Below, piece after piece: positions 2,177 to 28,155 of a stretch of 41,439 nucleotides of DNA. The DNA is from Thermoproteota archaeon (GTDB lineage Archaea; Korarchaeota; Korarchaeia; Korarchaeales; Korarchaeaceae). The notes below the pieces were generated by a model. The model saw only the letters and a program-made list of their open reading frames with translations. It was not told the DNA's origin and did not search any database. Every line of letters starts with the position of its first letter. Within the stretch, counting starts at the first letter, position 1. The DNA lies in the NCBI GenBank assembly GCA_027491395.1, contig JAOZFI010000023.1, positions 1 to 41,439 on the forward strand, in the 5' to 3' direction. The position numbers were made by a program, and so were the translations under genes.

Positions 2177-2461
2177 AAGAAGCCGCAGAGGGTGATACTG
2201 AAAAGGATTGAGTTTTAGGTTCCCTAGCTCGGTAAAACGTTGGAGTGTCTCTATCTATAGACAGGGGTGTTAATTAGCTCGTATCTTGAGACCACTACTA
2301 GACGCAGAGGTCGGTCATGGTTTGGGGGATATTGCCATCTTCATCTTCCCACCAAATCTGGGATCGCCTAATGACCTCGCTTAGTTCCAAGGGCGCTGCG
2401 AGAACCGCTGGACCATTAGTGGTTAACTTTAATATAAAAGAACTTGCTTTCTTTACCATAT

Positions 2462-3103
2462 ATGGGAATAGATGAGTCCTCCCTCTTCCTCATATGGCTC
2501 GCCCTTAGGGGACCCCTGACCCCTTCTAGAGCTGCTATTGAGGCGTCTTTACCTAAAACTACTGTCTATAGAAAGATAAAGGAGCTTGAGAATAGGGGAT
2601 GGCTCAGAAAAGAGGAAAATGCCTATATCTCCACCGAAAGGGCCGAGATTCTGGGCAGAATGGAGGTCAAGGATATACTGGGTGTCTTTCATGTAGAGAA
2701 ACTGTTTGAGAAGGCCGTTCGTCTCCAGACTGGTAGCTGGAAGAGATCAATGGAGCTCCTCAAGGAGAAGAGCAGGGGAGGCGATTTCGTGCTGTGCTAC
2801 GAAACAGCTGCTTATATCAGGACCGGGTTCCAGACACCATCCGCAGCCTTCGCTTATGTTAGAGAGTCCGACATGGAGAGATGGACCTCTCTAGGAAGGA
2901 AGGCTAGCAAGCTGGCTGATCTCGTCCTCATACCGGTCCGGGAACTACCGACTAGTGAAATTATATCAGGTTGGCCCGTGGTAACGGAGGAAAGGCTGAA
3001 GCTTGAGCTTATCACATGGTTAGGGAGGGGAGTACTGGATCTGGCGGCACTCGGAGGGGAGATCCCCACGGTCGTGGAGGAGATGACTGATGTCATCTAT
3101 TGA
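2462..3103 (+). CDS. wHTH protein with an AbiEi-like C-terminal domain (putative type IV antitoxin/regulator)
   Basis: N-terminal HTH (LTPSRAAIEASLPKTTVYRKIKELENRGWL); C-terminal ETAAY..TGFQTP...YV and PVVTEERLKLEL pattern. TATA-like TTTAATATA about 30 nt before ATG 2462. Confidence 0.55.
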   Translation: MGIDESSLFLIWLALRGPLTPSRAAIEASLPKTTVYRKIKELENRGWLRKEENAYISTERAEILGRMEVKDILGVFHVEKLFEKAVRLQTGSWKRSMELLKEKSRGGDFVLCYETAAYIRTGFQTPSAAFAYVRESDMERWTSLGRKASKLADLVLIPVRELPTSEIISGWPVVTEERLKLELITWLGRGVLDLAALGGEIPTVVEEMTDVIY

Positions 3104-3674
3104 TGATTTCCTGTCCGTGGCGGAGGAAAGGAGGGTCAGATACGCCCTAATGGGTGCCCTAGCGATATCAGCCATAAGAACCTTCAGGACCACTCATGAT
3201 GTGGATGTGGCTGTGCACCCGGCAGATCTCTGGAAGCTCAAGCGGGGTTTATCGAGCTTGGGCTACGTGTTGGTGGAGAACCCTCGCCTCGGAAAGCTCG
3301 AATTTAAGCACAGGGTGAAAGGGGATATAGATGTATACGTGGACAAGATCTCCGGTTTGAGTGTGAAGCAGCTTCTCAATAGAGCTGTGGAAGCAGAGAT
3401 TGATGGAAGGAGGGTGTGGGTCATATCACCTGAGGATGCCCTCCTGCTTAAGGCCCTAGCCCGCAGAGAGAGGGACCTCGCTGACATAGCGGTCATACTC
3501 ATCGAGGTCGGGGACAGGATCGACTGGGAGTATGTGAAAACTCTGAGCAGCGAGCTGAATCTTGACCTGAAGGAAGTTCTGAGGAGGAGCATTGAGAGAC
3601 TGCCCGTCTCGGTGGACAATCCGCCCAAGGTCAGGAAAATTCTTAGGAGATTGGTAGATAATATGTTAAGGTGA
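3090..3674 (+). CDS. Pol-beta superfamily nucleotidyltransferase (AbiEii/DUF6036-like putative toxin)
   Basis: GALA...RTTHDVDVAV NTase motif and SPEDALLLKALARRERDLADI. Overlaps the upstream HTH gene by 14 nt. Confidence 0.7.
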   Translation: MSSIDDFLSVAEERRVRYALMGALAISAIRTFRTTHDVDVAVHPADLWKLKRGLSSLGYVLVENPRLGKLEFKHRVKGDIDVYVDKISGLSVKQLLNRAVEAEIDGRRVWVISPEDALLLKALARRERDLADIAVILIEVGDRIDWEYVKTLSSELNLDLKEVLRRSIERLPVSVDNPPKVRKILRRLVDNMLR

Positions 3675-3804: not shown

Positions 3805-5166
3805 TTAGGCGGGTCTCATGAACTTGGCGGCCTCTTTGAAGGCTTCTATGGCCCTCTCTATGTCCTCCTTGGTGTGAACCACGCTGACGGTCCACTCGTC
3901 GTCACTTACCACGGGCTCTATGAACACCCCCCTGTTCATCATCGCTATCCAATAGCGCCACCAAGCAGCATCGTCCTGCTGGTAGAATGTTGGCAGGTCC
4001 ACCACCGGTTCTGTCGCACCCGGGTATATGTGACCGTTCGGACCTATCCACTGGACCACTGCGGGTATCCTGTAGTCGTCCACTATGTCTTGGAATGCCC
4101 TGCTGAGCTCGTCGCAGAGCCTGTGAGCCCTCGGGTAGGCATCAATGGTCAGGACCTTCGTGAGGGTCGCCAGAGCTGCGGCCATCACCAGCCTATTGGC
4201 GTTGAACGTGCCAGCATGAACGGCGTTGTGCGGACCCACGACGGACATGATCTCCTCCTTCCCCATGATCGCCGATACAGGGAAGCCACCGCCTATGCTC
4301 TTCGCCGTCACCGCCAGATCTGGCTTTATGCCGAAGAACTCCGCCGCCCCACCGGGCGCGAGTTTAACACCGGTCTTCACCTCATCGAAAATCAGGAGGG
4401 CCCCGTACTCCTCGGTGAGCTTCCTTAACCCTTCGAGGAAGCCCGGCTTAGGGGGCACGACACCAATGTTCATGGCCACAGGCTCCACTATGACGGCAGC
4501 TATCTCCTCCTCATGCATCTTGAACAGCCTCTCCACGGAGTTTAGGTCATTGTATCTAGCTATCAGGACTGACTCCAGAGTGGTGCCTGGTATCCCCGGA
4601 CCTACGGGTATCCTCCTCGGGAACTTCCTGCCCATCTGACCGGGAGGCGACTTTATGCTCACCAAGACGTAGTCGTGAGCCCCGTGATAGTTCCCCTCGA
4701 ACTTCACTATCTTGTCCTTGCCGGTGTACGCCCTAGCTATCCTTATGGCGTGCATCGTCGCCTCAGCTCCCGAGTTGCTGAACCTCACCTTATCAAGACC
4801 CCATCTCCTAGCCAGCTCCTTCGCGACGAGTCTGGCCTCTGGCACATCCGTCCCGAAGGCAGTTCCTTCTTGTATCACCTCCTGAACCGCCTCAACCACC
4901 GCTGGATGGCTGTGGCCCGAGAACACCGCACCCATGGCGAGGTTGAGGTCCACGTACTCGTTGCCGTCAACATCCCAGACCTTTCCACCCTTACCCTTGG
5001 CTATATAGATAGGATAGGGCTCGAAGAACCTCATATTGCTGTTTACACCATGAGGTACGTACTTTCGAGCCTCTCTAAAGATCTGTTCGGACCTACGGGT
5101 CCTCTCCGTGTACCTACCGAGTTCCTCGGAGAAGAAGTCGGGGACTTCCCCTAACCAGCCAGCCAA
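3805..5166 (-). CDS. Class III PLP aminotransferase (glutamate-1-semialdehyde aminomutase-like)
   Basis: Motifs WDVDGNEYVD, FSNSGAEA, GNYHG, IVEPV, LIFDEVKTG, AKSIGGGFP (PLP Lys) and HAGTFNAN. TTG start with a GGTGG RBS. Confidence 0.85.
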   Translation of the reverse strand: MAGWLGEVPDFFSEELGRYTERTRRSEQIFREARKYVPHGVNSNMRFFEPYPIYIAKGKGGKVWDVDGNEYVDLNLAMGAVFSGHSHPAVVEAVQEVIQEGTAFGTDVPEARLVAKELARRWGLDKVRFSNSGAEATMHAIRIARAYTGKDKIVKFEGNYHGAHDYVLVSIKSPPGQMGRKFPRRIPVGPGIPGTTLESVLIARYNDLNSVERLFKMHEEEIAAVIVEPVAMNIGVVPPKPGFLEGLRKLTEEYGALLIFDEVKTGVKLAPGGAAEFFGIKPDLAVTAKSIGGGFPVSAIMGKEEIMSVVGPHNAVHAGTFNANRLVMAAALATLTKVLTIDAYPRAHRLCDELSRAFQDIVDDYRIPAVVQWIGPNGHIYPGATEPVVDLPTFYQQDDAAWWRYWIAMMNRGVFIEPVVSDDEWTVSVVHTKEDIERAIEAFKEAAKFMRPA

Positions 5167-5247
5167 AGTACCACCAACGCTAGGCCCACCAGATCCTTAT
5201 AAAACCTAGCCTCAGAGTTTATTAGAGAGCGATACGCCATGAGGTAG
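5167..5247. promoter_or_regulatory. Divergent promoter region between the aminotransferase and AOR
   Basis: 81-bp spacer with TTTTATAAG on the - strand (~5196-5204), TTTATTA on the + strand (~5218-5224), and an RBS on each side. Confidence 0.5.
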
Positions 5248-7062
5248 GTGAACATGGTAGCCCCGTATGCAGGAAAGGTTTTGAGGGTAGACCTATCCGA
5301 GAATAAAATAGTTGTTGAGAACACAAGGAGGGATTGGGCCGCTCTCTACCTTGGAGGAAGGGGTTTGGGAATAAGGTATCTTTATGAGGAAGTTCCGCCG
5401 TCCACAGGAGCCCTCTGGCCTGAAAACAAGATTATAATTGCTACTGGGCCGCTGACCGGGACCGTGGCCCCTCTCACCGGAAGGTTCACAGTAGTTACCA
5501 AATCACCGAAAACGGGAACGTTGAATGACAGTTATGTGGGAGGCGCCTTCGGTCCCGAGCTCAAGTACGCGGGATACGACCTTATGATAGTTCAGGGGAA
5601 GGCGGAGAAACCCGTCTACATATCTGTTAAAGATGGAGAGGTAGAGATAAGGGATGCTAGCCATCTCTGGGGGAAAGCAATACCGGAAGCCACCGAGGAG
5701 TTGAAGAATGATCACGGCAGGTTGGCTAGGACACTGGTGATAGGACCTGCAGGGGAGAACCTCAGCTACATGGCCTCCGCGGTGGTCGATGAGCACTTCA
5801 TTGCGGGCAGGGGAGGTGTGGGTGCTGTATTCGGATCTAAGAAGCTCAAGGGAATAGTGGTAGAGGCGAGCGAGAGGAGCATAGACTTCCCCAATCCCGC
5901 GAGGTTCAGGGAGACCGTAGCTAGGTTGATGAAGGAGAGCGTGCTCACCGAGACGAACCTCTGGGCTAGGACCGATGGAACCCCCGTCATAGTGGATCTC
6001 AGCAATAATGTGGGTGCTCTGCCACACCTCAATTTCAGGGAGGGCTACTATGAGTACGCGAACTACATAAATACTGATGTGGTGAAGGCCAAGCTCGACA
6101 GCAGGTTCGCCTGTCACTCGTGCCCGCTCGCCTGCAAGAGAAAGATTAAGACGAGGAGAGGGGTGATAAAGGCCCCCGAGTACGAGACGATAGGGATGAT
6201 GGGGTCGAACCTCTCCCTCAAGGACATGGATGAACTGGCCCACCTTGGAGAGCTCGCCGATCAGTTAGGCCTAGACACCATAAGTCTCGGAGCCACCCTG
6301 AGCTTCCTACTCGAGATAAGGGAGAGGGGAATAATTACGGATGAGGAGATAGGGTTCCATGTGGACTGGGGCGAGCCTGAGGCCTTGGCCAAGCTGGTGA
6401 GGATGATAGCTTACAGGGAGGGCATCGGCAATACCTTGGCTGATGGGGTGAAGAGGGCCGCCGAGAGGATAGGGAAAGACAGCGAGAGATACGCAATGCA
6501 CATAAAGGGATCTGAGATCCCCGCCTATGATCCTAGATCGAGCTGGGGAATGGCCTTAGCCTACGCCACCTCAGATAGGGGGGCCTGCCACCTCAGGGCT
6601 TGGACCATAGCGAGCGAGGCCTTCGGAGACATACCGCCCCTCACCTTCGAGGGTAAGGCCAAGCTTACCAAGGACCTGCAGGACCTGAACAGCGTAAAGT
6701 GGAGCCTGATCATCTGCGACTTCTGGATCGTCGGGTACAGGGAAATGGCGGATCTGCTCAGCGCCACGCTGGATGTGGACTTCAAGGAATCCTACCTGCA
6801 GGAAGTGGGGGAGAGGATCTGGAACCTCTCCAGGATGTATAACGTGCGAGCCGGTTTCAAGAGGCAGGACGACTATCCACCCGACAGGTTCTTCGAGGAA
6901 GCGCACACCAAGGGCCCGATAAAGGGGGTCAAGCTCTCGAGGGAGGAGTACGAGAAGGCCCTTGACGAGTACTACCAGCTCAGAGGATGGGACAGGGAGG
7001 GTGTGCCTCTCAGAGAAACCCTCGACAGGCTGGAACTCTCGAGAGATCTCGGGCTCTCTTGA
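5248..7062 (+). CDS. aor: Aldehyde:ferredoxin oxidoreductase (tungstopterin AOR family)
   Basis: Motifs GKVLRVDLS, YLGGRGLG, KSPKTG, IGPAGENL, AGRGGVGAVFGSKKLK, CHSCPLAC, EYET, DQLGLDTIS and RGACH; 604 aa. Confidence 0.92.
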   Translation: MNMVAPYAGKVLRVDLSENKIVVENTRRDWAALYLGGRGLGIRYLYEEVPPSTGALWPENKIIIATGPLTGTVAPLTGRFTVVTKSPKTGTLNDSYVGGAFGPELKYAGYDLMIVQGKAEKPVYISVKDGEVEIRDASHLWGKAIPEATEELKNDHGRLARTLVIGPAGENLSYMASAVVDEHFIAGRGGVGAVFGSKKLKGIVVEASERSIDFPNPARFRETVARLMKESVLTETNLWARTDGTPVIVDLSNNVGALPHLNFREGYYEYANYINTDVVKAKLDSRFACHSCPLACKRKIKTRRGVIKAPEYETIGMMGSNLSLKDMDELAHLGELADQLGLDTISLGATLSFLLEIRERGIITDEEIGFHVDWGEPEALAKLVRMIAYREGIGNTLADGVKRAAERIGKDSERYAMHIKGSEIPAYDPRSSWGMALAYATSDRGACHLRAWTIASEAFGDIPPLTFEGKAKLTKDLQDLNSVKWSLIICDFWIVGYREMADLLSATLDVDFKESYLQEVGERIWNLSRMYNVRAGFKRQDDYPPDRFFEEAHTKGPIKGVKLSREEYEKALDEYYQLRGWDREGVPLRETLDRLELSRDLGLS

Positions 7063-7164
7063 GTTCCCTCACTGAACCTTCCAACCTCCCAAATTTTTGC
7101 GGTGATCTAGCTTCGGACCTATCTGTCAATTCTTTTTCCTGAAGGTACAGGGCCTCAGACATCC

Positions 7165-7182
7165 GAAAAATCAAAATATAAG
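7165..7182 (+). promoter_or_regulatory. Putative BRE/TATA promoter of potABC
   Basis: GAAAAATCAAAATATAAG lies 20-37 nt upstream of ATG 7202. Confidence 0.4.
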
Positions 7183-7201
7183 CCCCTGTTGGGACTCTGA
7201 G

Positions 7202-8311
7202 ATGGAGATGATGGAGAAGGCTGAATATATCACCTCCGAAGTCGAGGATATGGTCGTTCTCCGTAACATCGTTAAGCGGTTCGGGAAAGTTGTGGCATCA
7301 GATCACGTCAACATAGAGATAAAGAGAAATGAATTCTTCTCCCTACTCGGTCCCAGCGGCTCAGGGAAGACGACCCTCCTCAGGATAATCGCTGGTCTCG
7401 AGAAGCCTGATGAAGGCGTAGTCATCCTCGAGGGGAAGGACGTCACGAACCTTCCACCCTACAAGAGGAACATAGGGATGGTCTTCCAGCACCTCGCCCT
7501 CTTCCCCCACATGACTGTCTTCGAGAACATAGCTTACGGTTTGAGGCTCAGAAAGTTCCCTGAAGATGAAATAAAGAAGAGGGTATACGATGCCCTCGAA
7601 CTGGTCAAGATGCCTCCCGAGGTTTTCGCGGGGAGGAAGCCAAGCCAGCTCTCAGGCGGTCAGCAGCAAAGGGTTGCCATAGCCAGGGCTTTAGTGACTC
7701 AGCCAGCCGTGCTACTCTTGGACGAGCCGTTGGGTGCCCTCGACCTGAAGATAAGGCAGCACATGATGCTGGAGCTCAAGAGGATTCAGAGGACCGTTGG
7801 CACGACGTTCGTCTACGTCACCCACGATCAGGGGGAGGCCCTCGTCATGTCTGACAGGATAGCGGTCATCCATGAGGGAAGGGTCGAGCAGGTGGGCACT
7901 CCCTACGAGGTTTACGAGAAGCCGAGGACCAAGTTCGTCGCCAACTTCATTGGGGAGTCCAATTTCTTCGAGGGCATTCTAAGGAACGGTGCTGTTGAGA
8001 CGAGCTTCGGACTCATCAAGGTAATCTCGGACATCCAGAGCGGTAAGAAGGTCGTGATAAGCCTTCGACCCGAGAGGATAAAGGTTGGTAAGGCAGCCGG
8101 GGACGCTGAGAACAGGTTCGAGGGTAAGATAAAGGAGATAGTGTACAAGGGAGATGTCCTGATAGTCATGGTCGCGCTGGATGACGTCGAGGTCAAGGTT
8201 AATGTCCCAACCACCCATCCAGAGGCAAGGAAGCTCGAGGAGGGAGAGATAATCGCAGTGGGCTGGAATGCCGGAGACGAAGCTGGGGTCTTCGAGCTGG
8301 AGGCCGAGTAA
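7202..8311 (+). CDS. potA: Spermidine/putrescine-type ABC transporter ATP-binding subunit
   Basis: Motifs GPSGSGKTT, LSGGQQQRVA, LLLDEPLGALD and YVTHDQ; C-terminal TOBE-like region. Confidence 0.88.
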   Translation: MEMMEKAEYITSEVEDMVVLRNIVKRFGKVVASDHVNIEIKRNEFFSLLGPSGSGKTTLLRIIAGLEKPDEGVVILEGKDVTNLPPYKRNIGMVFQHLALFPHMTVFENIAYGLRLRKFPEDEIKKRVYDALELVKMPPEVFAGRKPSQLSGGQQQRVAIARALVTQPAVLLLDEPLGALDLKIRQHMMLELKRIQRTVGTTFVYVTHDQGEALVMSDRIAVIHEGRVEQVGTPYEVYEKPRTKFVANFIGESNFFEGILRNGAVETSFGLIKVISDIQSGKKVVISLRPERIKVGKAAGDAENRFEGKIKEIVYKGDVLIVMVALDDVEVKVNVPTTHPEARKLEEGEIIAVGWNAGDEAGVFELEAE

Positions 8312-8312
8312 C

Positions 8313-9140
8313 ATGTCGTGGATGGAATCACTCATAGACTTCGTGAGAAAGTACAGGCTCCTCGTGGCCCTGCTGGTACTCGGCCCTCCGCTCATCTATC
8401 TGGCCATTTACTTCTTCGCCCCTTTCTTAATCACCATACTATACAGCTTCGGCTTCATAGGAAGGAGAGGGGTGATCACCTGGGAGTTCACCATCAAGTA
8501 CTACCAACAGGCCCTGAGATGGGTCTATCTAAAGGTCTTCTACAACTCGGTGGTCCTAGCGGCCATAACTACTGTGGGAAGCATACTGATGGCCTATCCC
8601 GTGGCCTACTTCATAGCGGTCAAGGCGCCAAAGAAGTGGAAGAACCTCCTAGTGGTCAGCGTGATGGTCCCGTACTGGGTCGACTTCCTGCTCAGGACCT
8701 ATGCTTTGATGAATATCTTCACAATGCTCAAGATGATGTTTACTTATGAGGCGGTTATTATAGGCATGATATATGACTACCTCCCCTTCATGGTGCTGCC
8801 TCTCTACGCTAACCTAGAGAAGCTAGACAAGTCCCTGCTGGAGGCATCCTACACCTTGGGAGCCACGCCGTTAAAGACGTTCCTCAAGGTGACCCTACCG
8901 CTTTCTAAGCCGGGAATAGCCTCCGGAACAATTCTCGTGTTCGTTCCAGCCATAGGGGAGTTCATAGTTCCCTCCATGCTCGGCGGCGTGAGTGTCACGA
9001 CCATAGGAACCCTGACGTGGGATCTGTTTCTGAAGTTCCACAACTGGTGGCGGGGTGCGGCGCTCTCGATACTCTACATAGCAGTGGTCCTAGTCACCCT
9101 GATCATCTACATGAGGAAGGTAGGTGAGTTGGAGATATGA
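8313..9140 (+). CDS. potB: Polyamine ABC transporter permease
   Basis: Multiple TM helices, YLPFMVLPLY and EAA loop LLEASYTLGA. ATG at 8313 just after the potA stop. Confidence 0.85.
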   Translation: MSWMESLIDFVRKYRLLVALLVLGPPLIYLAIYFFAPFLITILYSFGFIGRRGVITWEFTIKYYQQALRWVYLKVFYNSVVLAAITTVGSILMAYPVAYFIAVKAPKKWKNLLVVSVMVPYWVDFLLRTYALMNIFTMLKMMFTYEAVIIGMIYDYLPFMVLPLYANLEKLDKSLLEASYTLGATPLKTFLKVTLPLSKPGIASGTILVFVPAIGEFIVPSMLGGVSVTTIGTLTWDLFLKFHNWWRGAALSILYIAVVLVTLIIYMRKVGELEI

Positions 9141-9913
9141 GCATAAGGGATAAGGTAATGGGCCTCTATTCGGCCTTCGTGTACGCCTTCCTCTACGTAC
9201 CGATACTGATAGTCATAGTCTTCTCCTTCAACGAATCAAGAACCCTAGGCCATTTCACGGGCTTCTCCCTTAAGTGGTATCAGGTTCTGCTCGAGGACAA
9301 GGTCGTGTGGGTGGCCTTCTACAACAGCCTCAACGTGGCTGTGATAACCACTCTAGTCTCCCTGTTACTAGGGACTCTCTCAGCCTACGGCATGATTAGG
9401 CTCGATATAGGAGGTAAAGGGGCTATAGACAGCCTGCTATATGTTCCTATAATAATTCCGGAGATAGCGGAGGCCCTCTCCCTTCTGCTCTTCTACAAAT
9501 TCTCAGGCTACGATCTGGGTTGGCTAACCGTCCTCTTGGGACACATAGCCTTCGACATATCTTTCGTTTACGTTGTAGTGAGGGCTAGGCTGGCCGGCTT
9601 CGACAGATCGCTTGAGGAGGCTTCTCTCACCCTAGGAGCGAATGAGGTTCAGACGTTCCTCAAGATAACCCTGCCGCTTTCCATGCCCGGCATCATAGCG
9701 GCAGCTCTTATAGCGTTCACCCTCTCCTTTGACGACTTCATAAAAACCGCGTTCACCACAGGCCCCGGCTTCCAGACGCTGCCCCTCATAATATGGTCTC
9801 AATCGGCTAGAGGGGGCGTTGGTCCTGAGCTCAACGCTCTGACCACTGTTATCATGGCTATCTCCATGACGATCGCCTATATTTATGCGAGGCTGACCAT
9901 GGAGAAGCAATAA
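9137..9913 (+). CDS. potC: Polyamine ABC transporter permease
   Basis: Motifs FLYVPILIVIVFSFN, GFSLKWY, LEEASLTLGA and FTLSFDDF. ATGA overlap with potB. Confidence 0.88.
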   Translation: MSIRDKVMGLYSAFVYAFLYVPILIVIVFSFNESRTLGHFTGFSLKWYQVLLEDKVVWVAFYNSLNVAVITTLVSLLLGTLSAYGMIRLDIGGKGAIDSLLYVPIIIPEIAEALSLLLFYKFSGYDLGWLTVLLGHIAFDISFVYVVVRARLAGFDRSLEEASLTLGANEVQTFLKITLPLSMPGIIAAALIAFTLSFDDFIKTAFTTGPGFQTLPLIIWSQSARGGVGPELNALTTVIMAISMTIAYIYARLTMEKQ

Positions 9914-9940
9914 TTTTTCTCCCTCCTTTCCGGCCTTTTT
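9914..9940 (+). terminator. Oligo-T archaeal terminator after potC
   Basis: TTTTTCTCCCTCCTTTCCGGCCTTTTT directly after the stop codon. Confidence 0.45.
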
Positions 9941-10108
9941 GGTAAATATAGTTGAGAATGAAATGGGACATTATAGATCCGATTTTTGTCGGATAAGATC
10001 TCTTCCCCCTAGGGGAGGCTTGAGGGGATCCCCCACCGTTTGGCTACAATCTTAATAGATCGAACCATGTAGAACTAATTTATTTATGTAGGACCGAGTT
10101 CACAAAGA

Positions 10109-10144
10109 TAGTTACTTTTATTGCCAATGTTAATAAAATAACTA
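10109..10144. promoter_or_regulatory. AT-rich inverted repeat (candidate operator) upstream of the TATA box of the 10204 gene
   Basis: TAGTTA(C)TTTTATT-gccaatgtt-AATAAAATAACTA; TATA-like TTTTTATAT at ~10172-10180. Confidence 0.45.
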
Positions 10145-10203
10145 GACATTCACGGCCCTTTATTCGAAGGGTTTTTATATTTCTCCCTCCTTCCTCCTTC
10201 GGG

Positions 10204-11412
10204 GTGAATCGATTGGTTCGCGTTGTAGTTTTGGGAGCTGGGGTCGTAGCTCCAGCGATAGTCTACGATCTTGCAGATGATGAGGTAAGCCCTCATGTGG
10301 ATGAGATATTGGTGGCTGACCTCTATGAGGAGAGAGCGAAGGCCGTTGTAGAAGATGCAAAGAGGTTCACTACCAGAAAGAAGCTCGAATATGCCAGAGT
10401 CGATGTGAGAAACGTTGAAGAGACTGCTAAACTCCTCGAGGGAGCAGACGTCGTGGTCAACGGAATAATCTACTATTTCATACCACAGGTTATGCGAGCG
10501 GCCCTCAAGGCTGGCGTGCACTATACTGATCTGGGTAGCGAGGTCCCCATACTGAAGAAGCAGCTAGAAATGGACGAGGACTACAGGAAAGCAGGCCTAC
10601 TGGCCATTCCGGGCATGGGCGGATGTCCTGGGATGATAAACGTGGAGGCGAGATACGCGGTCGAGCTACTCGACAAGGTCGAGAAAATCCTACTCAGGGA
10701 GGGATGGATAGACTTCAACGACTACGACAAGCTCGGGATACCACTTCCCGTTCCTTACTCTCTAGACTGCATATTCGACGAGTTCATGGACCCGGTGGAG
10801 GTGTGGGAGGACGGAGAAATCAGGCTGGTGGAGCCAGTCAGGGACTACGAGGTCATGGACTTCCCCGAGCCAGTGGGGAGGCAAAAGATGTACTACATCG
10901 AGCACCCCGAAGTCTGGACCGTGGGAGAGGTGTTCAAGCACAAGGGCCTGAAGTTCGTGGATTACAGGATATCATTCCCCGACGACCTGTTCCTCAAGTA
11001 CAAGCTGCTCACGGATCTGGGACTCACCAAGAAGACTCCCGTTAAGGTAGGCGACATTGAAATCGTGCCTAGGGATCTGGTGAGGAAGCTGGTTATGGAA
11101 ACTCTAGAGGGCAAGGAGATACCACCTAACGACTACGACGTTATGAGGGTCATAGCGGAGGGCGAGAAGGGAGGCAAGAGAGTCAGGATAACAGTGGATA
11201 TACATACCGAGTGGCACAAGAAGTGGAACCTGAGCGCGCAGGCCGTGACCGTCGGAACGCCGACCTCTATAACGGTACAATGGATGGCCACTGGCAGGAT
11301 AAAGGCCGTGGGCGTGAAGCACCCAGAGGAGGTAATAGAACCCCTGCCATTCTTCGAGGAACTGAAAAAGAGGGGAATGAAGATATTCGTTGAGGAAGAG
11401 AGGCTCCTCTAA
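10204..11412 (+). CDS. Saccharopine dehydrogenase family oxidoreductase (lysine 6-dehydrogenase / carboxyspermidine dehydrogenase-like)
   Basis: Rossmann VVVLGAGVVA, ADVVVNG, ALKAGVHYTDL, GMGGCPG and HPE; C-terminal GVKHPEE..PFFEELKKRG. Confidence 0.85.
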   Translation: MNRLVRVVVLGAGVVAPAIVYDLADDEVSPHVDEILVADLYEERAKAVVEDAKRFTTRKKLEYARVDVRNVEETAKLLEGADVVVNGIIYYFIPQVMRAALKAGVHYTDLGSEVPILKKQLEMDEDYRKAGLLAIPGMGGCPGMINVEARYAVELLDKVEKILLREGWIDFNDYDKLGIPLPVPYSLDCIFDEFMDPVEVWEDGEIRLVEPVRDYEVMDFPEPVGRQKMYYIEHPEVWTVGEVFKHKGLKFVDYRISFPDDLFLKYKLLTDLGLTKKTPVKVGDIEIVPRDLVRKLVMETLEGKEIPPNDYDVMRVIAEGEKGGKRVRITVDIHTEWHKKWNLSAQAVTVGTPTSITVQWMATGRIKAVGVKHPEEVIEPLPFFEELKKRGMKIFVEEERLL

Positions 11413-12635
11413 GCCGCCTGGACCTCCTCCCACACCTCATTTAATTTGGCCTTCTGTTCATCGGTGAGTACTGGTACGAACCACAGCCTCTTTTGAACAT
11501 CCTCAGGCGGATATACTATCGGATCCTTGAGCACATCCTCCTCCATGAGAGGCTGAGATGCCTTCACGGGGTTCGCGTATTTTATGTAGTTAGAGTTCAC
11601 AGCCGCAACTGCTGGGTCGAGCAGGAAGTTTATGAACAGGTGAGCGGCGATAGGATGCGGAGCGTCCTTGGGTATCAAGAGGTTATCGGTCCACTTGGTT
11701 CCTCCCTCCTCCGGTATGCCGTAGCTGACCTTGTCAGCCAGCTCTGGATGCTCCTCTTCCTTGAAGACAGCTATATCACCGTTGTAGGCGTGAGCCACAT
11801 ATATGCTCCCGTTGGCCAGTCCTTGGAAGTACTCGCTCGTACCAGCGTAGGCAGCAAGGTAGGGCTTCTGTTTTATTAGGACCTCCTTCACCTCCTCCAT
11901 CGTCTTGTCGCTCCAGTCGTTGGGATCCTTGCCGAGATAGGCCTTGGCCGAGAGCACGACCTCTATAGCCTCCTCGAGCATAGTTATCTTCTTCTTGTAC
12001 TTCTCGAGGAATCCATAATTGGGATCGAATATCTGCTTCACCGTAGTAACTCCCTCAGGACAGAGATCGTTCCTCCAAGAGTAGCCTGTGGTGCCCCACA
12101 TGTACACAAAGCTGTACTTGTTGCCGGGGTCGAATGGTGGGTTCAGAAAGTTCGGATCCATGAACTTGGCGTTAGGTATGAGGGATTTGTCCAGCTCCCT
12201 TACGTACCCCCTCCTTATGGCGAGGGCCGCGTCGTTGTCAGGAAGGACTATCACGTCGTAGCCGCTACCGCCAGCCTCGAGTTTGGCGAAGGGCTCGGCC
12301 GGATCCTCGAACACATCGTAAACTATCTTATCTCTAGGTATGCCGGTCTCCTGGGAGAATATGTCGAGAAGGGCCTCTTGGATGTAGTATGACCAGTTAT
12401 ACACGTGGAGGGCGCCCTCATGCTTGGGCATCGCTGATACCGTTTTTGTCACAGTAGTGGTCACCACACCCTTCTCAGCGAGCTGCTTCCTGAGCTTCTC
12501 TATCTCCTTCTCATACTCAGCTATCTTCTCAGGACTTACTCCCGGTCCTCTAAGCGACCAGCCGGCTGCTCCGCCGACAACGAGGCCGGCAACACCGGCT
12601 ATCGCTATCTTCAAAAATTCCCTTCGGCTCGTCAT
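11409..12635 (-). CDS. potD: Polyamine ABC transporter substrate-binding protein (PotD/PotF family) with twin-arginine signal
   Basis: SRREFLK plus hydrophobic helix; motifs YNWSYY, FDPGNKYS..YMWGTTG, AYNGD, PEEGGTKWTDN and AHLFINFLLDP. Confidence 0.85.
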   Translation of the reverse strand: MTSRREFLKIAIAGVAGLVVGGAAGWSLRGPGVSPEKIAEYEKEIEKLRKQLAEKGVVTTTVTKTVSAMPKHEGALHVYNWSYYIQEALLDIFSQETGIPRDKIVYDVFEDPAEPFAKLEAGGSGYDVIVLPDNDAALAIRRGYVRELDKSLIPNAKFMDPNFLNPPFDPGNKYSFVYMWGTTGYSWRNDLCPEGVTTVKQIFDPNYGFLEKYKKKITMLEEAIEVVLSAKAYLGKDPNDWSDKTMEEVKEVLIKQKPYLAAYAGTSEYFQGLANGSIYVAHAYNGDIAVFKEEEHPELADKVSYGIPEEGGTKWTDNLLIPKDAPHPIAAHLFINFLLDPAVAAVNSNYIKYANPVKASQPLMEEDVLKDPIVYPPEDVQKRLWFVPVLTDEQKAKLNEVWEEVQAA

Positions 12636-13094: not shown

Positions 13095-15050
13095 CTATCG
13101 CTTCCCTAGCAAGTAACCGGCGAGGAGCCCTATGAGGAGGGCCCCGAGAAGCAGGACCATCTGGGAAGTGGGGGTGACCATCGTCTTTGGGTTCGATGTC
13201 ACGGTCCGTGGTACCGTGACAGTCACTGTGGTGGGCGTTTTGGTGGGGATCTCTGGTCCGGTTGCGGTAGGAGTCGTGGAAGGGGTCTGCTTGAGCTGGC
13301 TTCCCGCCAAGGTTAGCAGGGACAGCATATGGGCGTGAGCCGAGCTCAGCTCGAAGTATACTATAGAATCGAACTGGCTCCCCGACTTCTCATAGACCTT
13401 GGCAGTCTCCGCATAGCTCAATGCCAAGACGGGGATTATACCCTTTCGAAGGAGTTCGTTTATCGAGGAGTAGCTCATCTTCCTGAGGGCGTCCTGGACG
13501 GCCTTGGGATCGCTGGTGAACCACTGGTGTATCGATGCTGTTGCCTTCGCCAAGGCGCTGGTGGTCATTCCCAAGCTCCCGTACAGGTCTCCCGAAGAGA
13601 ACGCGGCTCCGGCCCTATCGAGATCATCGGAGGCCTCGTTGAGCAGATCAGAGGTGGCTCCAACGTCCTGTAGCAGGCTGACCGCGTATGATACTACGCT
13701 CTCCGCCTCATATAGCATGACCGAAGCCACTTTCCTCAAACGTGATTCCGGCACTATCTTCCCCTTGCCCACCCCGAAGAGCCATGTCCAAGTCTCAGCC
13801 GTCTCTGCCCTCCAGTACGCGTAGGACAGCCAGTGGAGGGCGCCCCAGTCCGTGGAGTCGAAGTAAACCTTCTTGGACGCAAGCAGAGTCGCTCTGGAGA
13901 GCGCGTCCCTCGCCATATAGTAACGGGTCTTGGCAGCTATCAACGCCTCCAAAGAGCTCAGGCTGCTCGGTTTCGTCCCATTCAGCTTACTTCCGACCGA
14001 ATTTATCTTATCACTTGCCCTCTCGGCTATCAGATCGATAGATTTGGGACCAGAGACGGCGAAGTAGACGAGGGACCTCGCGTACTCGGCCTCGAAGGTC
14101 GACTGGAAGGCGAAACTCGAGGCCGTATAATACAGCCCGCTGGCCAACTCCTTCTTGGCCTTGTTCGATAGCTCCTCCGATAATGCCAGAACCTTCTCGA
14201 CCGCGTTCCTGGCCATGTAGCTGAGCTTGCTGAGGTTCGCCTCCACCCACTTCCTTATGGACTCACTTTCCTTCAGGTAGTGATCTACCCACCTCTCTAT
14301 CACCCCTTTGAGTTCCTTCGGGAGGTTCGGTTCCTTAGCTGTTGGGCGCTCCAGCTCTATGCCGATCATGTACCGCGCAGCGTCAGCGATTGTGCTCACC
14401 TCCTTGACTTCCACTCCCAGTTTCTTCCCTAGCTCGACGAGGTCCACCTTCTCCTTCTCCACGGTGGTCATTATGAGGGGCCCTATCTTCACCTGCTTGG
14501 GCACGGTCCTCTCGACCACCCTCTGACCAGCGGGAACCAAGAACACCTTGGCTCCACCCTTAGCGGCAGCTTCCAGCTTCTCCGGTATACCCCCCACCGG
14601 CCCTACCGTTCCATCTGGATTCACCATTCCCGTCATCACAACATCCTGCTTGACCTCCTTTCCTAGAAGAGCAGCTATCGTAGCCACTGTCATGGCCGCC
14701 CCGGCGCTAGGTCCACCTATTATCATGCTATCGGACTCCAAACGATAATAGAAGTTGTAGGAGAGGGGATCCTTGCCCAGAGTGTAGCTAGCGACAAGGG
14801 CGGCAGTTCTGGCTGCCCCTTGAGTATCGATCTGGGTTAAAGGATCGGCGGAGAAGTAAACATAGCCCTCTCCAGGCTCGACCTCGACGGTCAGGTTTCC
14901 CAGTGAACCCATCGATATTCCTTCCGGTGTCTGATATACTGCCGGAACTCTGGTGAATGCTCTGCTCCTGTTAGAGGCCTCAGAGGTTATAGGCGCCAGT
15001 AATGTGAGTATAAGAAGGACAGTTACTGCAATCTTAACCATTCTATGCAT
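13095..15050 (-). CDS. Membrane-anchored archaeal S16 (Lon-type proteolytic domain) serine protease
   Basis: Signal peptide; GPSAG (Ser) and GPVGGIPEKLEAA (Lys) dyad; helical region; Thr/Pro-rich linker; C-terminal TM. ATG 15050 preceded by GGTGA. Confidence 0.85.
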   Translation of the reverse strand: MHRMVKIAVTVLLILTLLAPITSEASNRSRAFTRVPAVYQTPEGISMGSLGNLTVEVEPGEGYVYFSADPLTQIDTQGAARTAALVASYTLGKDPLSYNFYYRLESDSMIIGGPSAGAAMTVATIAALLGKEVKQDVVMTGMVNPDGTVGPVGGIPEKLEAAAKGGAKVFLVPAGQRVVERTVPKQVKIGPLIMTTVEKEKVDLVELGKKLGVEVKEVSTIADAARYMIGIELERPTAKEPNLPKELKGVIERWVDHYLKESESIRKWVEANLSKLSYMARNAVEKVLALSEELSNKAKKELASGLYYTASSFAFQSTFEAEYARSLVYFAVSGPKSIDLIAERASDKINSVGSKLNGTKPSSLSSLEALIAAKTRYYMARDALSRATLLASKKVYFDSTDWGALHWLSYAYWRAETAETWTWLFGVGKGKIVPESRLRKVASVMLYEAESVVSYAVSLLQDVGATSDLLNEASDDLDRAGAAFSSGDLYGSLGMTTSALAKATASIHQWFTSDPKAVQDALRKMSYSSINELLRKGIIPVLALSYAETAKVYEKSGSQFDSIVYFELSSAHAHMLSLLTLAGSQLKQTPSTTPTATGPEIPTKTPTTVTVTVPRTVTSNPKTMVTPTSQMVLLLGALLIGLLAGYLLGKR

Positions 15051-15240
15051 TCGAGTCACCGTATTCAAGTCGTTACTGGGGAAAATTAACTGTTTGTGCG
15101 TCAATTGATTATTCCAAGCGGGAGGGGAGTTCGTCGAGAGGAAGACTATCGGATATGAAAGAAGAGCCCGCAGCTCTCGGAACGGACAAGGTGCGGTGAT
15201 GTTTAAAGCTATTGCCTATTCAAGCTGATCAGGTGATAGC

Positions 15241-15678
15241 ATGTCCCCTGCATGGAAACCTAAGAGGAAGGTCCCCCTCCGAGTCGAGGACATAATGAGT
15301 AAACCTCCGATCACACTCCCAGTTACCGCGACAGTTGATGATGCCATCAAGACCATGTGGGAGAACCAAGTTGGGAGTGTACTCATAGTGGATGAGGATG
15401 GTAAGCTCGTTGGAATCGTCACTCAGAGGGATATATTGTATACGGGATATAGGGGCCTTTGCGGTAAGGGGATACCGGTCAGGGATGTGATGACCGAGAA
15501 CCCGATCACCATCAAGCCTGAGGAGCCCGTTGAAGAGGCCACTAGGAAGATGAAGGATGCCGACATATCGCACCTACCCGTGGTGGATGAGGAGGGCAAG
15601 CCCGTCGGCGTCCTCTCGATGAGGGACGTCATGGACGCCTCGATGCTGTTGCTTAGGGTCCTGCTAGGAGCCGAGTGA
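15241..15678 (+). CDS. Tandem CBS-domain protein
   Basis: VEDIMSKPPIT...LVGIVTQRDI and VRDVMTENPIT...HLPVVDEEGKPVGVLSMRDV. GGTGA RBS. Confidence 0.9.
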   Translation: MSPAWKPKRKVPLRVEDIMSKPPITLPVTATVDDAIKTMWENQVGSVLIVDEDGKLVGIVTQRDILYTGYRGLCGKGIPVRDVMTENPITIKPEEPVEEATRKMKDADISHLPVVDEEGKPVGVLSMRDVMDASMLLLRVLLGAE

Positions 15679-16988
15679 TCGGCGCCCCTCTACCTTTTTT
15701 GGATGTTAGATCTCGATGGAGGGTGCTCCTTTTGTCTAAGGAGGTCGAGTTGATAGAGGTACATGAGGAGCCCGATGAGGAATCTTTAGCCCTAGAAATT
15801 GCTCAGAAGTTAGACGAAGGAACCTCCGTGGTGCTGAAGGGTCCTCCCGAGAGGGTCAAGGTAATTATAGAGCTGATCAGGAGGTATGGAGCCAACTGGC
15901 TCCGAGTGGTTTACTCGCCACCGTGGGAGGATCCAGCAAAGTACGTGGAGTACGCCAGGTACTTGAGATCAGAAGCTCCGTACAGGTTGCTGGGTGAGAA
16001 GCCCCTCAAGAGGAGGATACTCATCAGGAGAATGGCCAAGGCCTCCTTCGACTACATGGATGCTCCCCTCGTAGATAGCAGATGCGCGAGTCTCGACCAC
16101 TGCTACCTATGCATCGACAGCTGCCCTGAGAATGCCATAATTAGGGAGAAACCGGTCAAAATAGACCTGAGTAGGTGCACGGAGTGCGGAGCGTGCGTAA
16201 ATGCCTGCCCCGTCGGCTATCTGACACCCCCTAGTTTCACGCTCATCGGTTTCAGGAGGTTCGCGAGGGAGTCCGATATCATTCACGCAGTTCCCCTATC
16301 GAAGCTTGAGGAAGTGGGGGATGGGAGCATCATTAGATCCCAAGAGGGATCCTTCCCGCTCGTTGCCGTACTGCTCTCCAAGGTGATGGGGGTTGAATTC
16401 AGGGGCGTCGGGCTTGACCTCTTGGATCCGTACTTGAAGGAGCTCAGTAATCTGCCAAGAGGAGAGAGGAGGTCCGTTCGAATAGAGAGGTTCAACGAGC
16501 ATGCATCGCTGGAAGCAACCCTGATTGCATCCGAGCTGGAGGACAGGGATGAATGGATTAACTTGAAGCACCTAAACTTCTTCAGAGTGTCGGTTTCCTC
16601 CGACGAATGCACGCTTTGCGGCGTCTGTCCAAAGGTGTGTCCGACGAAGGCCCTCAGAATCACTAGGGAGGGGGATACACTGAAGCTCGAGTTCTCCCAT
16701 CAGCTGTGCATAGGATGCGGAGCATGTGAGGAATCCTGCCCAGAGAGCGCCATAGAGCTGAGCAGGGAGATAAATCCGCACCTGCTCATCACCGGAAATT
16801 TCGTGGAGGAGGTCGAGGACGAGATAGCTAGGTGCAGGGGATGCGGCGCCCCACTTGATGGGACGGTAAAGATGATCCAAAAGCTCGAGCAGAGGATAAG
16901 AGAGAAGGGTGACGAGAGATACGCGGAACTCGTGTGGTACTGTCCCACCTGTAAGGAGAAGAAGATGTTCGAGGAGCTACTTGGGTAG
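15675..16988 (+). CDS. Polyferredoxin-like 4Fe-4S protein
   Basis: CxxxxxCxxCxxxCP, three CxxCxxCxxxCP motifs, and a C-terminal CRGC...CPTC pair. GTGA overlap with the CBS gene. Confidence 0.85.
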   Translation: MIGAPLPFLDVRSRWRVLLLSKEVELIEVHEEPDEESLALEIAQKLDEGTSVVLKGPPERVKVIIELIRRYGANWLRVVYSPPWEDPAKYVEYARYLRSEAPYRLLGEKPLKRRILIRRMAKASFDYMDAPLVDSRCASLDHCYLCIDSCPENAIIREKPVKIDLSRCTECGACVNACPVGYLTPPSFTLIGFRRFARESDIIHAVPLSKLEEVGDGSIIRSQEGSFPLVAVLLSKVMGVEFRGVGLDLLDPYLKELSNLPRGERRSVRIERFNEHASLEATLIASELEDRDEWINLKHLNFFRVSVSSDECTLCGVCPKVCPTKALRITREGDTLKLEFSHQLCIGCGACEESCPESAIELSREINPHLLITGNFVEEVEDEIARCRGCGAPLDGTVKMIQKLEQRIREKGDERYAELVWYCPTCKEKKMFEELLG

Positions 16989-26156: not shown

Positions 26157-26839
26157 GATTCGCCGCAGTCCTTCCCCTCTTCTTATTGATTTCGGGGGCA
26201 GTTCTCCTAGTTTACAGTCTGATCCCCAGGGAGAACCTAGCGGGTGACTTGGTATTAGAGAATGGGACGTACGAGATGGTCAGGTGTCAGGGCACGATGA
26301 TCCTCCAAGTCAACGGGAGCTTATGCGTGGATGTCAGAGATATGGAGCTTAGAGAGATTGCAAGAGGGAGTTCCGTTAACGAGCTGGTTTCGTTTCCACT
26401 GCTGAAAGTGAGAGGGAGTAGGCTTGAGCTGACAGTGAGTAATTATGACGCTGTGTGGAGGAGGAGTTACGACTTCTCTGACGGTGGATCCCTAATACCG
26501 ATGGAAAGAGGTGAATGGAACCTTTCAGCCTCCTCTGATGGTCAAATTACGCTGTACGGGATAGAAAGATACAATCCAGCTAGAGGAGACCTAGTCAGGA
26601 GCGATGATTCGGTAAAGGTCGCGTGTGGCAGCATCATCAATGAAACATACCTAATCCTCTATAACCCCTCTCAGGAGTCCATAAGGGTCCGTGTGCTCAC
26701 AGGTCACGACATCGACGTTTATTCCCTCTCCATATCGATCGGACTCGTTCTAGCGGCTCTCCTAGTGAGGAGGTATTCTCATGCTATTGGGAGTGGGGGA
26801 GGAGCGCTCACTGGAGCTGGCCTCTATCCTAATAGCTAG
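26153..26839 (+). CDS. Membrane protein with an extracellular beta domain between N- and C-terminal TM helices
   Basis: TTG at 26153 overlaps the upstream TGA and follows GGAGGA; MRFAAVLPLFLLISGAVLLVYSLI...VYSLSISIGLVLAALLVRR. Confidence 0.65.
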   Translation: MRFAAVLPLFLLISGAVLLVYSLIPRENLAGDLVLENGTYEMVRCQGTMILQVNGSLCVDVRDMELREIARGSSVNELVSFPLLKVRGSRLELTVSNYDAVWRRSYDFSDGGSLIPMERGEWNLSASSDGQITLYGIERYNPARGDLVRSDDSVKVACGSIINETYLILYNPSQESIRVRVLTGHDIDVYSLSISIGLVLAALLVRRYSHAIGSGGGALTGAGLYPNS

Positions 26840-28154: not shown

Positions 28155-28155
28155 C

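Follow-up and report, generated by a model that had tools for sequence, protein, structure and literature searches.

The 41,439-nt contig JAOZFI010000023.1 of a korarchaeal genome (assembly GCA_027491395.1), hereafter called the window in its full length, carries a conserved gene cluster that most likely serves the oxygen-free breakdown of polyamines and arginine-derived amines, with a predicted tungsten-dependent aldehyde ferredoxin oxidoreductase (AOR) at the step for which bacteria employ an ordinary aldehyde dehydrogenase (ALDH). As read from its genes, the cluster would be a catabolic island for nitrogen-rich basic amines, whose trunk converts an omega-amine to an amino-aldehyde and the latter to an amino acid plus reduced ferredoxin; we assign this reading a probability of about 0.55. 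The genes concerned encode a HemL-like class III aminotransferase (AT3), the AOR, a saccharopine-dehydrogenase-family enzyme (SDH), a Pot-type ABC transporter with its binding protein, and an arginine deiminase-like (ADI-like) enzyme (Table 1). The window is contig C62 of the source genome (G000), a 1.72-Mb archaeal assembly that is 98.4% complete; homologues of its proteins are recorded under Candidatus Korarchaeum or Korarchaeota. Gene calls were taken from the listing of open reading frames (ORFs), and families were assigned with Pfam and NCBIfam. Neighbours in relatives were called by tblastn, with thresholds that we set ourselves and a crude ORF caller, and related genomes are not counted as independent observations of co-location.

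In the proposed route, the Pot-type system would import a cationic di- or polyamine-like compound such as putrescine, agmatine or a longer polyamine, and SDH may open or deaminate a C–N bond of this compound to give an aldehyde. AT3, acting as an ordinary omega-transaminase with a 2-oxo acid as acceptor, would convert the terminal amine of a putrescine-type diamine and/or ornithine to an amino-aldehyde. The dedicated AOR would then oxidize 4-aminobutanal, 3-aminopropanal or glutamate-5-semialdehyde to gamma-aminobutyrate (GABA), beta-alanine or glutamate, with reduction of ferredoxin. The ADI-like enzyme, together with an ornithine carbamoyltransferase (OTC) and a carbamate kinase whose genes lie on a different contig, could lead arginine through citrulline to ornithine and so provide an ATP-yielding entry into the trunk. 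This scheme draws on observed gene content, conservation, family membership, catalytic residues and the alternation of AOR with ALDH. All substrates, the direction of the SDH reaction and the coupling to ferredoxin are predicted.

The strongest support for an AOR standing where an ALDH is otherwise found comes from the relatives of AT3, because ALDH and AOR alternate in otherwise related clusters. The AT3 family is large: 4378 proteins, among them true HemLs, scored E <= 1e-80. Of the relatives listed at 45–55% identity, many are automatically named glutamate-1-semialdehyde aminomutase, and some have bacterial names. When 28 aligned family members were used to scan metagenomes, with neighbours called by tblastn, 80 loci resulted. 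Within reach lay an ALDH in 45 of these and an APC permease in 42; 32 had a second class III aminotransferase, 25 a Pot-type ATPase, 19 PotD, 14 SDH, three an AOR (L164, L189 and L205) and two OTC. One recurrent layout, annotated in full at locus L179, runs SDH, AT3, a GadC-like permease, ALDH, GabT and a second ALDH, with a Pot/YdcS-type ABC system upstream. The GabT exceeded the cut-off of its equivalog model (TIGR00700, 575 vs 507), and the first ALDH is nearest to betaine-aldehyde and aminobutyraldehyde dehydrogenases. Judging from named homologues and from the GC content of L179 (59%), this and the related ALDH-bearing loci are probably bacterial. Locus L164 (41% GC) instead runs permease, metallophosphoesterase, an undescribed gene, a small ORF, AT3 and AOR, the last two on one strand with a gap of 96 nt, and both AT3 and AOR are also present in L189 and L205. 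Likewise, the cluster of L131 has an ALDH where that of L151 has an AOR. The sequence-only reading had proposed that AOR replaces ALDH, and at the level of the cluster this agrees with related loci, which hold an ALDH where the archaeal ones hold an AOR; it does not extend to the genome as a whole, which keeps one NAD-dependent ALDH elsewhere.

The known counterpart of such a layout is the putrescine transaminase pathway, in which E. coli uses PatA (YgjG) and PatD (YdcW) with ydcSTUV, followed by GabT/GabD, and P. aeruginosa uses SpuC with the spu transporter. L179 reads as the logic of this pathway (PatA/PatD/GabT/GabD) with AT3 putatively at the place of PatA, and it is within the AT3 family that the layout with GabT appears. 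The window cluster resembles the pathway in having a polyamine-type ABC importer, a class III omega-transaminase and an aldehyde-oxidizing enzyme predicted to yield an omega-amino acid. It differs from it in several respects: its transaminase belongs to the HemL-like branch rather than to PatA/SpuC, its aldehyde step would be carried out by a predicted ferredoxin-reducing tungsten AOR rather than by an NAD-dependent ALDH, SDH and the ADI-like enzyme are added, and the window contains no GabT/GabD.

The AOR of the cluster matched both domains of its family (PF02730, 261.5 bits; PF01314, 435.8 bits), and its nearest solved structures are AORs (9mqx, 448 bits; 1aor, 438 bits), the formaldehyde ferredoxin oxidoreductase (FOR) structure 1b25 scoring lower at 344 bits. 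It shares with the AOR/FOR enzymes of Pyrococcus furiosus the two-domain architecture and the Fe–S cysteine motif, here CxxCxxxC at 289–296 (C289, C292 and C296) plus C490, which we take to be 4Fe-4S ligands by correspondence to the residues of P. furiosus AOR. From the family we infer a tungsten cofactor and ferredoxin as the acceptor. In a maximum-likelihood tree of 13 AORs, from which the L147 row was dropped because its full ORF was not recovered, the window AOR grouped with those of L092, L050, L151, L164 and L189 (support 100/99). The other three AORs of the source genome, which are ~38–41% identical to it, fell outside this clade; its sister consisted of the AORs that adjoin the ADI-like gene in L137 and L140 (86/91), and the AORs of L145 and L205 were of other types. 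Among the 43 genomes of the phylum, 15 have an orthologue (at least 63% identity), the next best AORs reaching at most 46%. The orthologue lies beside the ADI-like gene, SDH or AT3 in 14 of these 15 genomes, and in the fifteenth the contig ends there. By our own arithmetic, based on four AOR genes in 1.7 Mb, an AOR would fall within 10 kb of a random gene by chance in ~5% of cases, and the co-location of the cluster genes exceeds chance. Unlike the P. furiosus enzymes, the cluster AOR is a member of a distinct clade bound to a single gene cluster, which suggests that this clade is dedicated to the cluster and has a specific pathway role. FOR itself has long been suspected of acting on C4–C6 semialdehydes, as noted in passages of a 2025 review (PMC12096430).

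HemL is the closest sequence family of AT3, and the sequence-only reading had argued that the aminotransferase is nevertheless not a HemL. AT3 (PF00202, 238 bits) shares with HemL the common fold, the pyridoxal phosphate (PLP) lysine and the N-terminal Ser and Arg of the NSxxR motif; its best NCBIfam and PDB matches are HemLs, and it just exceeded the subfamily model NF000818 (402 vs 398). On the hemL equivalog TIGR00713, however, it scored 397.9 bits, 130 bits short of the cut-off of 527.3, whereas four archaeal HemLs reached 557–610 in the same test. Searches for hemA (TIGR01035), hemB (PF00490) and hemC (TIGR00212) gave no match in the source genome, which thus appears to have no tetrapyrrole pathway, and were positive in 14, 11 and 11 of 14 control genomes, respectively. 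In an alignment of 12 sequences, AT3 reads GVNSNMR where the four true archaeal HemLs read GVSSPVR, GVNSPVR or GVNSPIR, which confirms the earlier remark that NSNMR takes the place of NSPVR/SSPVR. The PLP lysine (K289) is invariant in both this and the 28-sequence alignment. The Gly-Ser-Gly of the HemL gating loop, described as mattering for loop closure and retention of the diamino intermediate (PMC4909244, in the part concerned with the loop), is absent from AT3 and its relatives, whose loop is 7 residues longer at this site; of the four true archaeal HemLs, three have GSG and the one at L060 has GSA. AT3 also carries FDEVKTG at the site of HemL FDEVITGFR, and its R412 is invariant in 28 family members and variable in true HemLs. 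We therefore rejected a true HemL (glutamate-1-semialdehyde 2,1-aminomutase), an identity that, given the sub-cut-off score, the missing hem genes, the gating loop and the catabolic gene context, is close to refuted. The features listed fit an ordinary transaminase that would release its product. The source genome has seven loci for class III aminotransferases, of which AT3 is the sole HemL-like one, and one of the others exceeded the cut-off of an archaeal 'acetylornithine aminotransferase family' model.

Within Korarchaeia, the whole arrangement is kept in all six close relatives (AT3 94–98% identical) as far as their contigs reach. A second Korarchaeum clade of six genomes has the ADI-like gene (57% identity), AOR (74%) and SDH (76–78%) at the syntenic place, and its related aminotransferase, AT3-B (48–51% identical to AT3), adjoins a permease and a metallophosphoesterase. 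Across the phylum, the ADI-like gene occurs in 18 of the 43 genomes and a window-type SDH (at least 72% identity) in 14. At L050, which belongs to another genus, the order is AOR, permease, metallophosphoesterase, SDH (75%), an undescribed gene, AT3-B, a different ADI-family gene, an APC permease and a carbamoyltransferase, so that the cluster locus and the AT3-B locus are merged. We also observed that AT3-B is accompanied by a three-gene module of an APC-superfamily permease (~546 aa), a metallophosphoesterase and a ~270-aa protein at L050:2309-7008, L053:12979-16718, L131:15200-18596 and L164:110-3543, that is, in Korarchaeia, Caldarchaeales and unbinned contigs. In the second clade, a soluble DUF6938 protein of 422–478 aa is encoded between the ADI-like gene and AOR (L093:6366-7634, syntenic in L092 and L094–L096); a transporter was considered for it and rejected, the protein having a single weak hydrophobic segment. 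In these genomes the genes after SDH encode two V4R-domain proteins, of which one also has an ACT domain.

Outside the phylum, a scan with the ADI-like alignment, taking one genome per species, gave 41 loci, which were screened by tblastn and in selected cases annotated with Pfam and NCBIfam. In the 29 loci L123–L151, mostly non-korarchaeal and many on short contigs, tblastn placed a class III aminotransferase near the ADI-like gene in 11, an SDH-family gene in 7, an AOR in 6, OTC in 5 (6 when the carbamoyltransferase sequence comparison is included) and a Pot system (at least 40% identity) in 4. L151 (Candidatus Geocrenenecus dongiae) contains within 10 kb the run ADI-like gene, OTC, AT3-B, an AOR on the opposite strand, and the run PotD, PotB, PotC, PotA, SDH. 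L131, L135 and L143 (Caldarchaeales or Aigarchaeota) each have a class III aminotransferase, SDH, PotABCD and the ADI-like gene; L131 and L143 also carry OTC, and L131 adds AT3-B and an ALDH of the methylmalonate-semialdehyde dehydrogenase (MMSDH) type. L145 (Desulfurococcaceae) has OTC, carbamate kinase (382 vs 358), a class III aminotransferase of another subfamily, AOR, an SSF symporter and the ADI-like gene, and L137 has an AOR with a ferredoxin, an SSF symporter, the ADI-like gene, a carbamoylase-family amidase and a GABA-transaminase-like gene. The neighbourhood described in the sequence-only reading is conserved, its families recurring together in Korarchaeia, Caldarchaeales and unbinned contigs.

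The ADI-like protein matched PF02274 (37.5 bits vs a cut-off of 22.8), has an extra N-terminal region of ~190 aa and is the only PF02274-like locus in the source genome. A PDB search with the single sequence returned no matches; with a profile of 22 sequences, the top nine matches among solved structures were all arginine deiminases (best E = 4.9e-8). Alignment of this profile with 1rxx, 2abr and 4bof placed D200, R219, E256, R279, H320, D322 and C428 opposite D166, R185, E224, R243, H278, D280 and C406 of P. aeruginosa ADI. The roles of the catalytic residues and of the two substrate-carboxylate arginines are those given for M. arginini ADI in the relevant part of PMC3474736, carried over to P. 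aeruginosa numbering by spacing. The curated arginine deiminase model TIGR01078 was not reached (26.5 vs 489), and a 0.91 match to an 'arginine deiminase family' cluster in the ESM Atlas, tied with viral hypothetical proteins, is a weak lead. In three close relatives the gene lies downstream of AT3 and on its strand, at a distance of 39 nt in G011 and G008 and of 331 nt in G006; because of this arrangement we place it in the same unit as AT3, with which it was originally co-directional. The cluster is therefore wider than had been described from the sequence alone: the genes listed there and their positions hold, and the ADI-like gene had been left out.

The source genome encodes ADI-like enzyme, OTC and carbamate kinase, with OTC (TIGR00658, 375 vs 281) and carbamate kinase (TIGR00746, 436 vs 358) adjacent on contig C8. 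According to the section of PMC3282769 on these signatures, OTCs carry a Lys two residues before STRT and the motif xSMG, and putrescine carbamoyltransferase is marked by three traits. Both OTC traits are present in the carbamoyltransferases of C8 (KKPSTRTR plus xSMG), L131, L143 and L151, and those of L145 and L150 show xSMG, their STRT region lying outside the matched stretch. The C8 enzyme is thus of the ornithine type, and a putrescine carbamoyltransferase in its place was rejected on the Lys and xSMG signature. OTC and carbamate kinase are unlinked to the window in the source genome, but linkage to the ADI-like gene was found in L131, L151 and L145. The carbamoyltransferase of L050 (11067-12014) has no Lys before STRT, DLWWWVG for xSMG and no C-terminal helix; it shows two of the three putrescine-carbamoyltransferase traits and adjoins an ADI-family gene and an APC permease, so that this genus may have an archaeal agmatine deiminase-type pathway. 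Two OTC paralogues exist in the source genome (C8:2715-4626, L154; C37:629-1561, L155). The one beside carbamate kinase reads NTWWSMG, with Asn for the usual Asp of DxxxSMG, and the C37 protein has the canonical DTWFSMG with HCQP for HCLP. The C8 OTC is 72–75% identical to OTCs beside Caldarchaeales ADI-like genes, far above the ~40–60% of other cluster proteins, which suggests transfer between lineages. The genome also encodes argG, argH and proC, and an ornithine cyclodeaminase/mu-crystallin gene (37133-38098, minus strand; PF02423, 225 bits) on the window contig, 25 kb from the cluster, could represent another fate of ornithine.

In its catalytic and carboxylate-binding residues, and in the presence of an ornithine-type OTC and carbamate kinase in the genome, the system resembles the ADI pathway (ArcA, ArcB and ArcC), and the ADI, OTC and carbamate kinase of Candidatus Korarchaeum cryptofilum have already been treated as such a pathway in the relevant passage of PMC5052871. 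It is unlike that pathway in the strong divergence and different N-terminal region of the ADI-like protein and in the lack of an ArcD antiporter, and the route appears to run beyond ornithine via the transaminase and AOR.

Enzymes of the saccharopine dehydrogenase fold join or split an amine and an aldehyde using NAD(P). An AlphaFold2 model of SDH (pLDDT 93) was compared by Foldseek with solved structures and came closest to carboxyspermidine dehydrogenases (TM 0.83–0.87) and P. horikoshii lysine 6-dehydrogenase (TMt 0.83), with saccharopine reductases at ~0.7, in keeping with the fold assignment made from the sequence alone. It is unlike these nearest enzymes in its identity of 19–25% to them, in lacking a partner decarboxylase and in its catabolic context, and it scored 54.1 bits on the carboxynorspermidine synthase model NF043000, whose cut-off is 800. 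SDH lies within the transporter operon both in this genome and in Caldarchaeales; in metagenome loci it immediately precedes AT3. A paralogue in the source genome and its relatives adjoins M42 or M20 peptidases and amino-acid permeases.

For the transporter genes, which the sequence-only reading assigned to a Pot-type importer, scores on the curated models were mixed. PotA exceeded the polyamine subfamily model TIGR01187 (373 vs 355.6) and fell under the PotA equivalog (391 vs 482); on the curated subunit models, PotB scored 174.5 vs 348, PotC 224.9 vs 326 and the binding protein 186 vs 636 (PotF). The binding protein is nearest to SpuD, SpuE and PotF, with PDB matches of ~191 bits (3ttm, 3ttk and 3ttl) and ~170 bits to PotF. 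It carries a twin-arginine signal (RREFLK) and one transmembrane segment as an N-terminal anchor. Of the residues that we take to be the ligand contacts of PotF, the equivalents of W37, Y40, E185, D247, D278 and Y314 are conserved and D39 is replaced by Tyr, as it is in all cluster-linked archaeal binding proteins; as a speculation, this Tyr might leave space for a carboxylate.

Candidates for the main substrate amine of AT3 and AOR can be ranked as follows. A putrescine-type di- or polyamine leads at somewhat under even odds, in line with the binding protein, with SDH and with the gene neighbourhoods of AT3 relatives; arginine-derived ornithine, to which the ADI-like enzyme, the ornithine-type OTC and carbamate kinase would point, has about one chance in three; and another amine (lysine, cadaverine or 1,3-diaminopropane) would be the substrate in perhaps one case in five. 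The earlier proposal of a polyamine, diamine or lysine thus agrees with the binding protein, SDH and AT3 context, but ornithine must be set beside it as an equally serious candidate, because the ADI-like gene, ornithine-type OTC, carbamate kinase and aminotransferase run together in relatives.

If ornithine were the sole focus, the cluster would be a purely extended ADI pathway, in which arginine is converted through citrulline to ornithine and carbamoyl phosphate, the latter yielding ATP, and the Pot system imports arginine or ornithine rather than polyamines. Ornithine would then pass to glutamate-5-semialdehyde by AT3 as an ornithine delta-aminotransferase or by SDH as an ornithine delta-dehydrogenase, and AOR would produce glutamate. 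We consider this unlikely. In its favour, solved arginine deiminases are the closest structures to the ADI-like family, which keeps both substrate-carboxylate arginines, in the roles given by that part of PMC3474736; the linked carbamoyltransferases (C8, L131, L143 and L151) have both OTC traits of the PMC3282769 section; the gene runs of L151 and L145 bring OTC together with an aminotransferase, AOR and the ADI-like gene, in L145 with carbamate kinase and the SSF symporter; the gap between AT3 and the ADI-like gene shrinks to 39 nt in two relatives; and the Tyr at the Asp39 site occurs in every cluster-linked archaeal binding protein. Set against these points are the presence of the AT3 family in putrescine-type ALDH clusters of metagenome loci, one of them confirmed with GabT, the acidic triad of PotF kept in the binding protein, and the polyamine enzymes as nearest neighbours of SDH. 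Moreover, L164, on a contig of 8.3 kb, has permease, AT3 and AOR without ADI or OTC, the L050 carbamoyltransferase (no Lys; WWVG) leans to the putrescine type in two of three traits, and the source genome holds other candidate ornithine aminotransferases. A more improbable arrangement would make SDH the main aldehyde generator, as a lysine/ornithine omega-dehydrogenase or polyamine dehydrogenase paired with AOR, and leave AT3 as a loosely linked accessory. In six second-clade genomes AOR and SDH are indeed parted by a single 76-codon ORF, with no AT3 there, the fold is near that of P. horikoshii lysine 6-dehydrogenase, and the SDH paralogue adjoins peptidases and amino-acid permeases; yet AT3 and AOR are adjacent without SDH in L164 and L205, and SDH accompanies just 14 of the 80 AT3-family loci.

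It is very improbable that the genes are mere neighbours without a common pathway, with SDH serving polyamine biosynthesis, AOR detoxifying aldehydes in general and Pot taking up polyamines for growth. Among solved structures, SDH is closest to carboxyspermidine dehydrogenases, which are biosynthetic, and detoxification is described as a frequent AOR role in the 2025 review (PMC12096430, in the part on AOR functions). But the gene families are found together across Korarchaeia, Caldarchaeales and unbinned contigs, a dedicated AOR clade accompanies them, the cluster contains no carboxyspermidine decarboxylase gene, SDH stays far below NF043000 (54 vs 800), and the fully annotated L179 carries a catabolic GabT and ALDHs. 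Several observations do weigh against an amine-catabolic trunk built on all of these genes. OTC and carbamate kinase lie outside the window in the source genome, and the ADI-like gene is today parted from AT3 by an inserted HTH/nucleotidyltransferase pair. AT3 is not obligatory beside AOR and SDH, because in the second Korarchaeum clade a DUF6938 gene occupies its position and AT3-B lies ~80 kb away. Two genomes (G009 and G020) have the ADI-like gene without an AOR orthologue. The SDHs of Caldarchaeales and metagenome clusters are 27–36% identical to the SDH queries, with the L131 protein 29% identical to that of the window, and such divergent enzymes may not be isofunctional. The six other class III aminotransferases of the source genome are alternative candidates for an ornithine aminotransferase. 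The genome also has an ALDH of the CoA-acylating MMSDH subfamily (C45:29361-32057, L162; 495 vs 448.5), its only one, so AOR does not replace ALDH genome-wide. This ALDH gene adjoins a class III aminotransferase, and the pair could convert beta-alanine or a similar omega-amino acid to an acyl-CoA.

The features of the cluster are collected in Table 1. AT3 and AOR are divergent, with a computed start-to-start gap of 81 bp, PotA and PotB overlap by 44 nt and PotB and PotC by 4 nt, and SDH and the binding-protein gene stand tail to tail.

Table 1. Features of the proposed amine-catabolic gene cluster and its immediate surroundings in the window.
Feature	Position	Strand	Basis
ADI-like enzyme, guanidino-group-modifying superfamily, 435 aa	869..2176	-	PF02274
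HTH protein	2444..3103	+	Pfam
DUF6036 nucleotidyltransferase	3090..3674	+	Pfam
AT3, HemL-like class III omega-aminotransferase, 453 aa	3805..5166	-	PF00202
Divergent intergenic region AT3/AOR, 81 bp	5167..5247	.	sequence read; A/T-rich TATA-like boxes
AOR, tungstopterin family, 604 aa	5248..7062	+	PF02730 + PF01314
PotA, ATPase	7202..8311	+	TIGR01187
PotB, permease	8268..9140	+	best match PotB, under cut-off
PotC, permease	9137..9913	+	best match PotC, under cut-off
Spacer before SDH, 290 nt, A/T-rich box	9914..10203	.	sequence
SDH, saccharopine-dehydrogenase-family NAD(P) enzyme, 402 aa	10204..11412	+	PF03435 + PF16653
PotF/SpuD-type (PotD/F-like) binding protein, 408 aa	11409..12635	-	PDB matches

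A pyrimidine-rich direct repeat of 16 nt (15/16 identical; 9913-9928 and 10177-10192) encloses 264 nt in the interval from the PotC stop to the SDH start, and an Rfam search over the whole window gave no matches. The helix-turn-helix (HTH) and DUF6036 genes between AT3 and the ADI-like gene (2444-3674) overlap by 14 nt. The pair is present in the window, G010, G012 and G002 and missing in G006, G011 and G008; because AT3 and the ADI-like gene adjoin in these last three genomes, we regard it as an insertion. It looks like a small mobile or toxin-antitoxin-like element that splits the operon and stands outside the pathway. Beyond the binding protein, the window encodes a 669-aa protein with a Lon C-terminal protease domain alone, without an ATPase domain (13095-15104, minus strand), followed by a CBS-pair protein and a 437-aa polyferredoxin-like protein (15241-16988, plus strand). 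In both Korarchaeum clades, synteny with the cluster extends to the Lon-C, CBS and GT2 neighbours. Further on, ORFs of 854 aa and 264 aa without Pfam matches, a T2SSE-type secretion/pilus ATPase and a 313-aa ORF (23592-29049, plus strand) may form a surface-filament locus.

Amine and arginine catabolism as such are known; what is new in this cluster is that a dedicated AOR clade stands in for ALDH, that a HemL-like transaminase takes the place of PatA or an ornithine aminotransferase, and that an SDH-fold partner is added. In open-access papers and preprints, we found no AOR linked to ornithine, glutamate semialdehyde or putrescine catabolism and no treatment of this cluster in Korarchaeum, and among the matches listed there was no HemL-like ornithine aminotransferase. 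For Thermococcus, the passages of PMC11032458 on amino acid use describe a different enzyme that leads from arginine to ornithine, with ornithine used for proline, and state that for eight amino acids any catabolism has yet to be established. Most enzymes of the AOR family still lack a clear physiological role, according to the 2025 review (PMC12096430) where it treats their functions. Our most far-reaching proposal is tentative, at roughly one chance in three: the AOR clade would be a physiological omega-amino-aldehyde:ferredoxin oxidoreductase in a complete fermentation of polyamines and arginine that is independent of oxygen and NAD, the AT3 family would comprise diamine/ornithine omega-transaminases, and SDH would be a new dehydrogenase that cleaves polyamines or omega-amines.

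From its conserved gene neighbourhood, one AOR clade receives a specific substrate class that can be tested. A large family labelled 'glutamate-1-semialdehyde aminomutase' is probably misannotated. If the proposed route is true, thermophilic archaea would obtain ATP by way of carbamoyl phosphate, and the aldehyde step would supply them with reduced ferredoxin. It would also explain how strictly anaerobic peptide fermenters dispose of ornithine and polyamines, and how they could draw extra energy from arginine- and polyamine-rich necromass.

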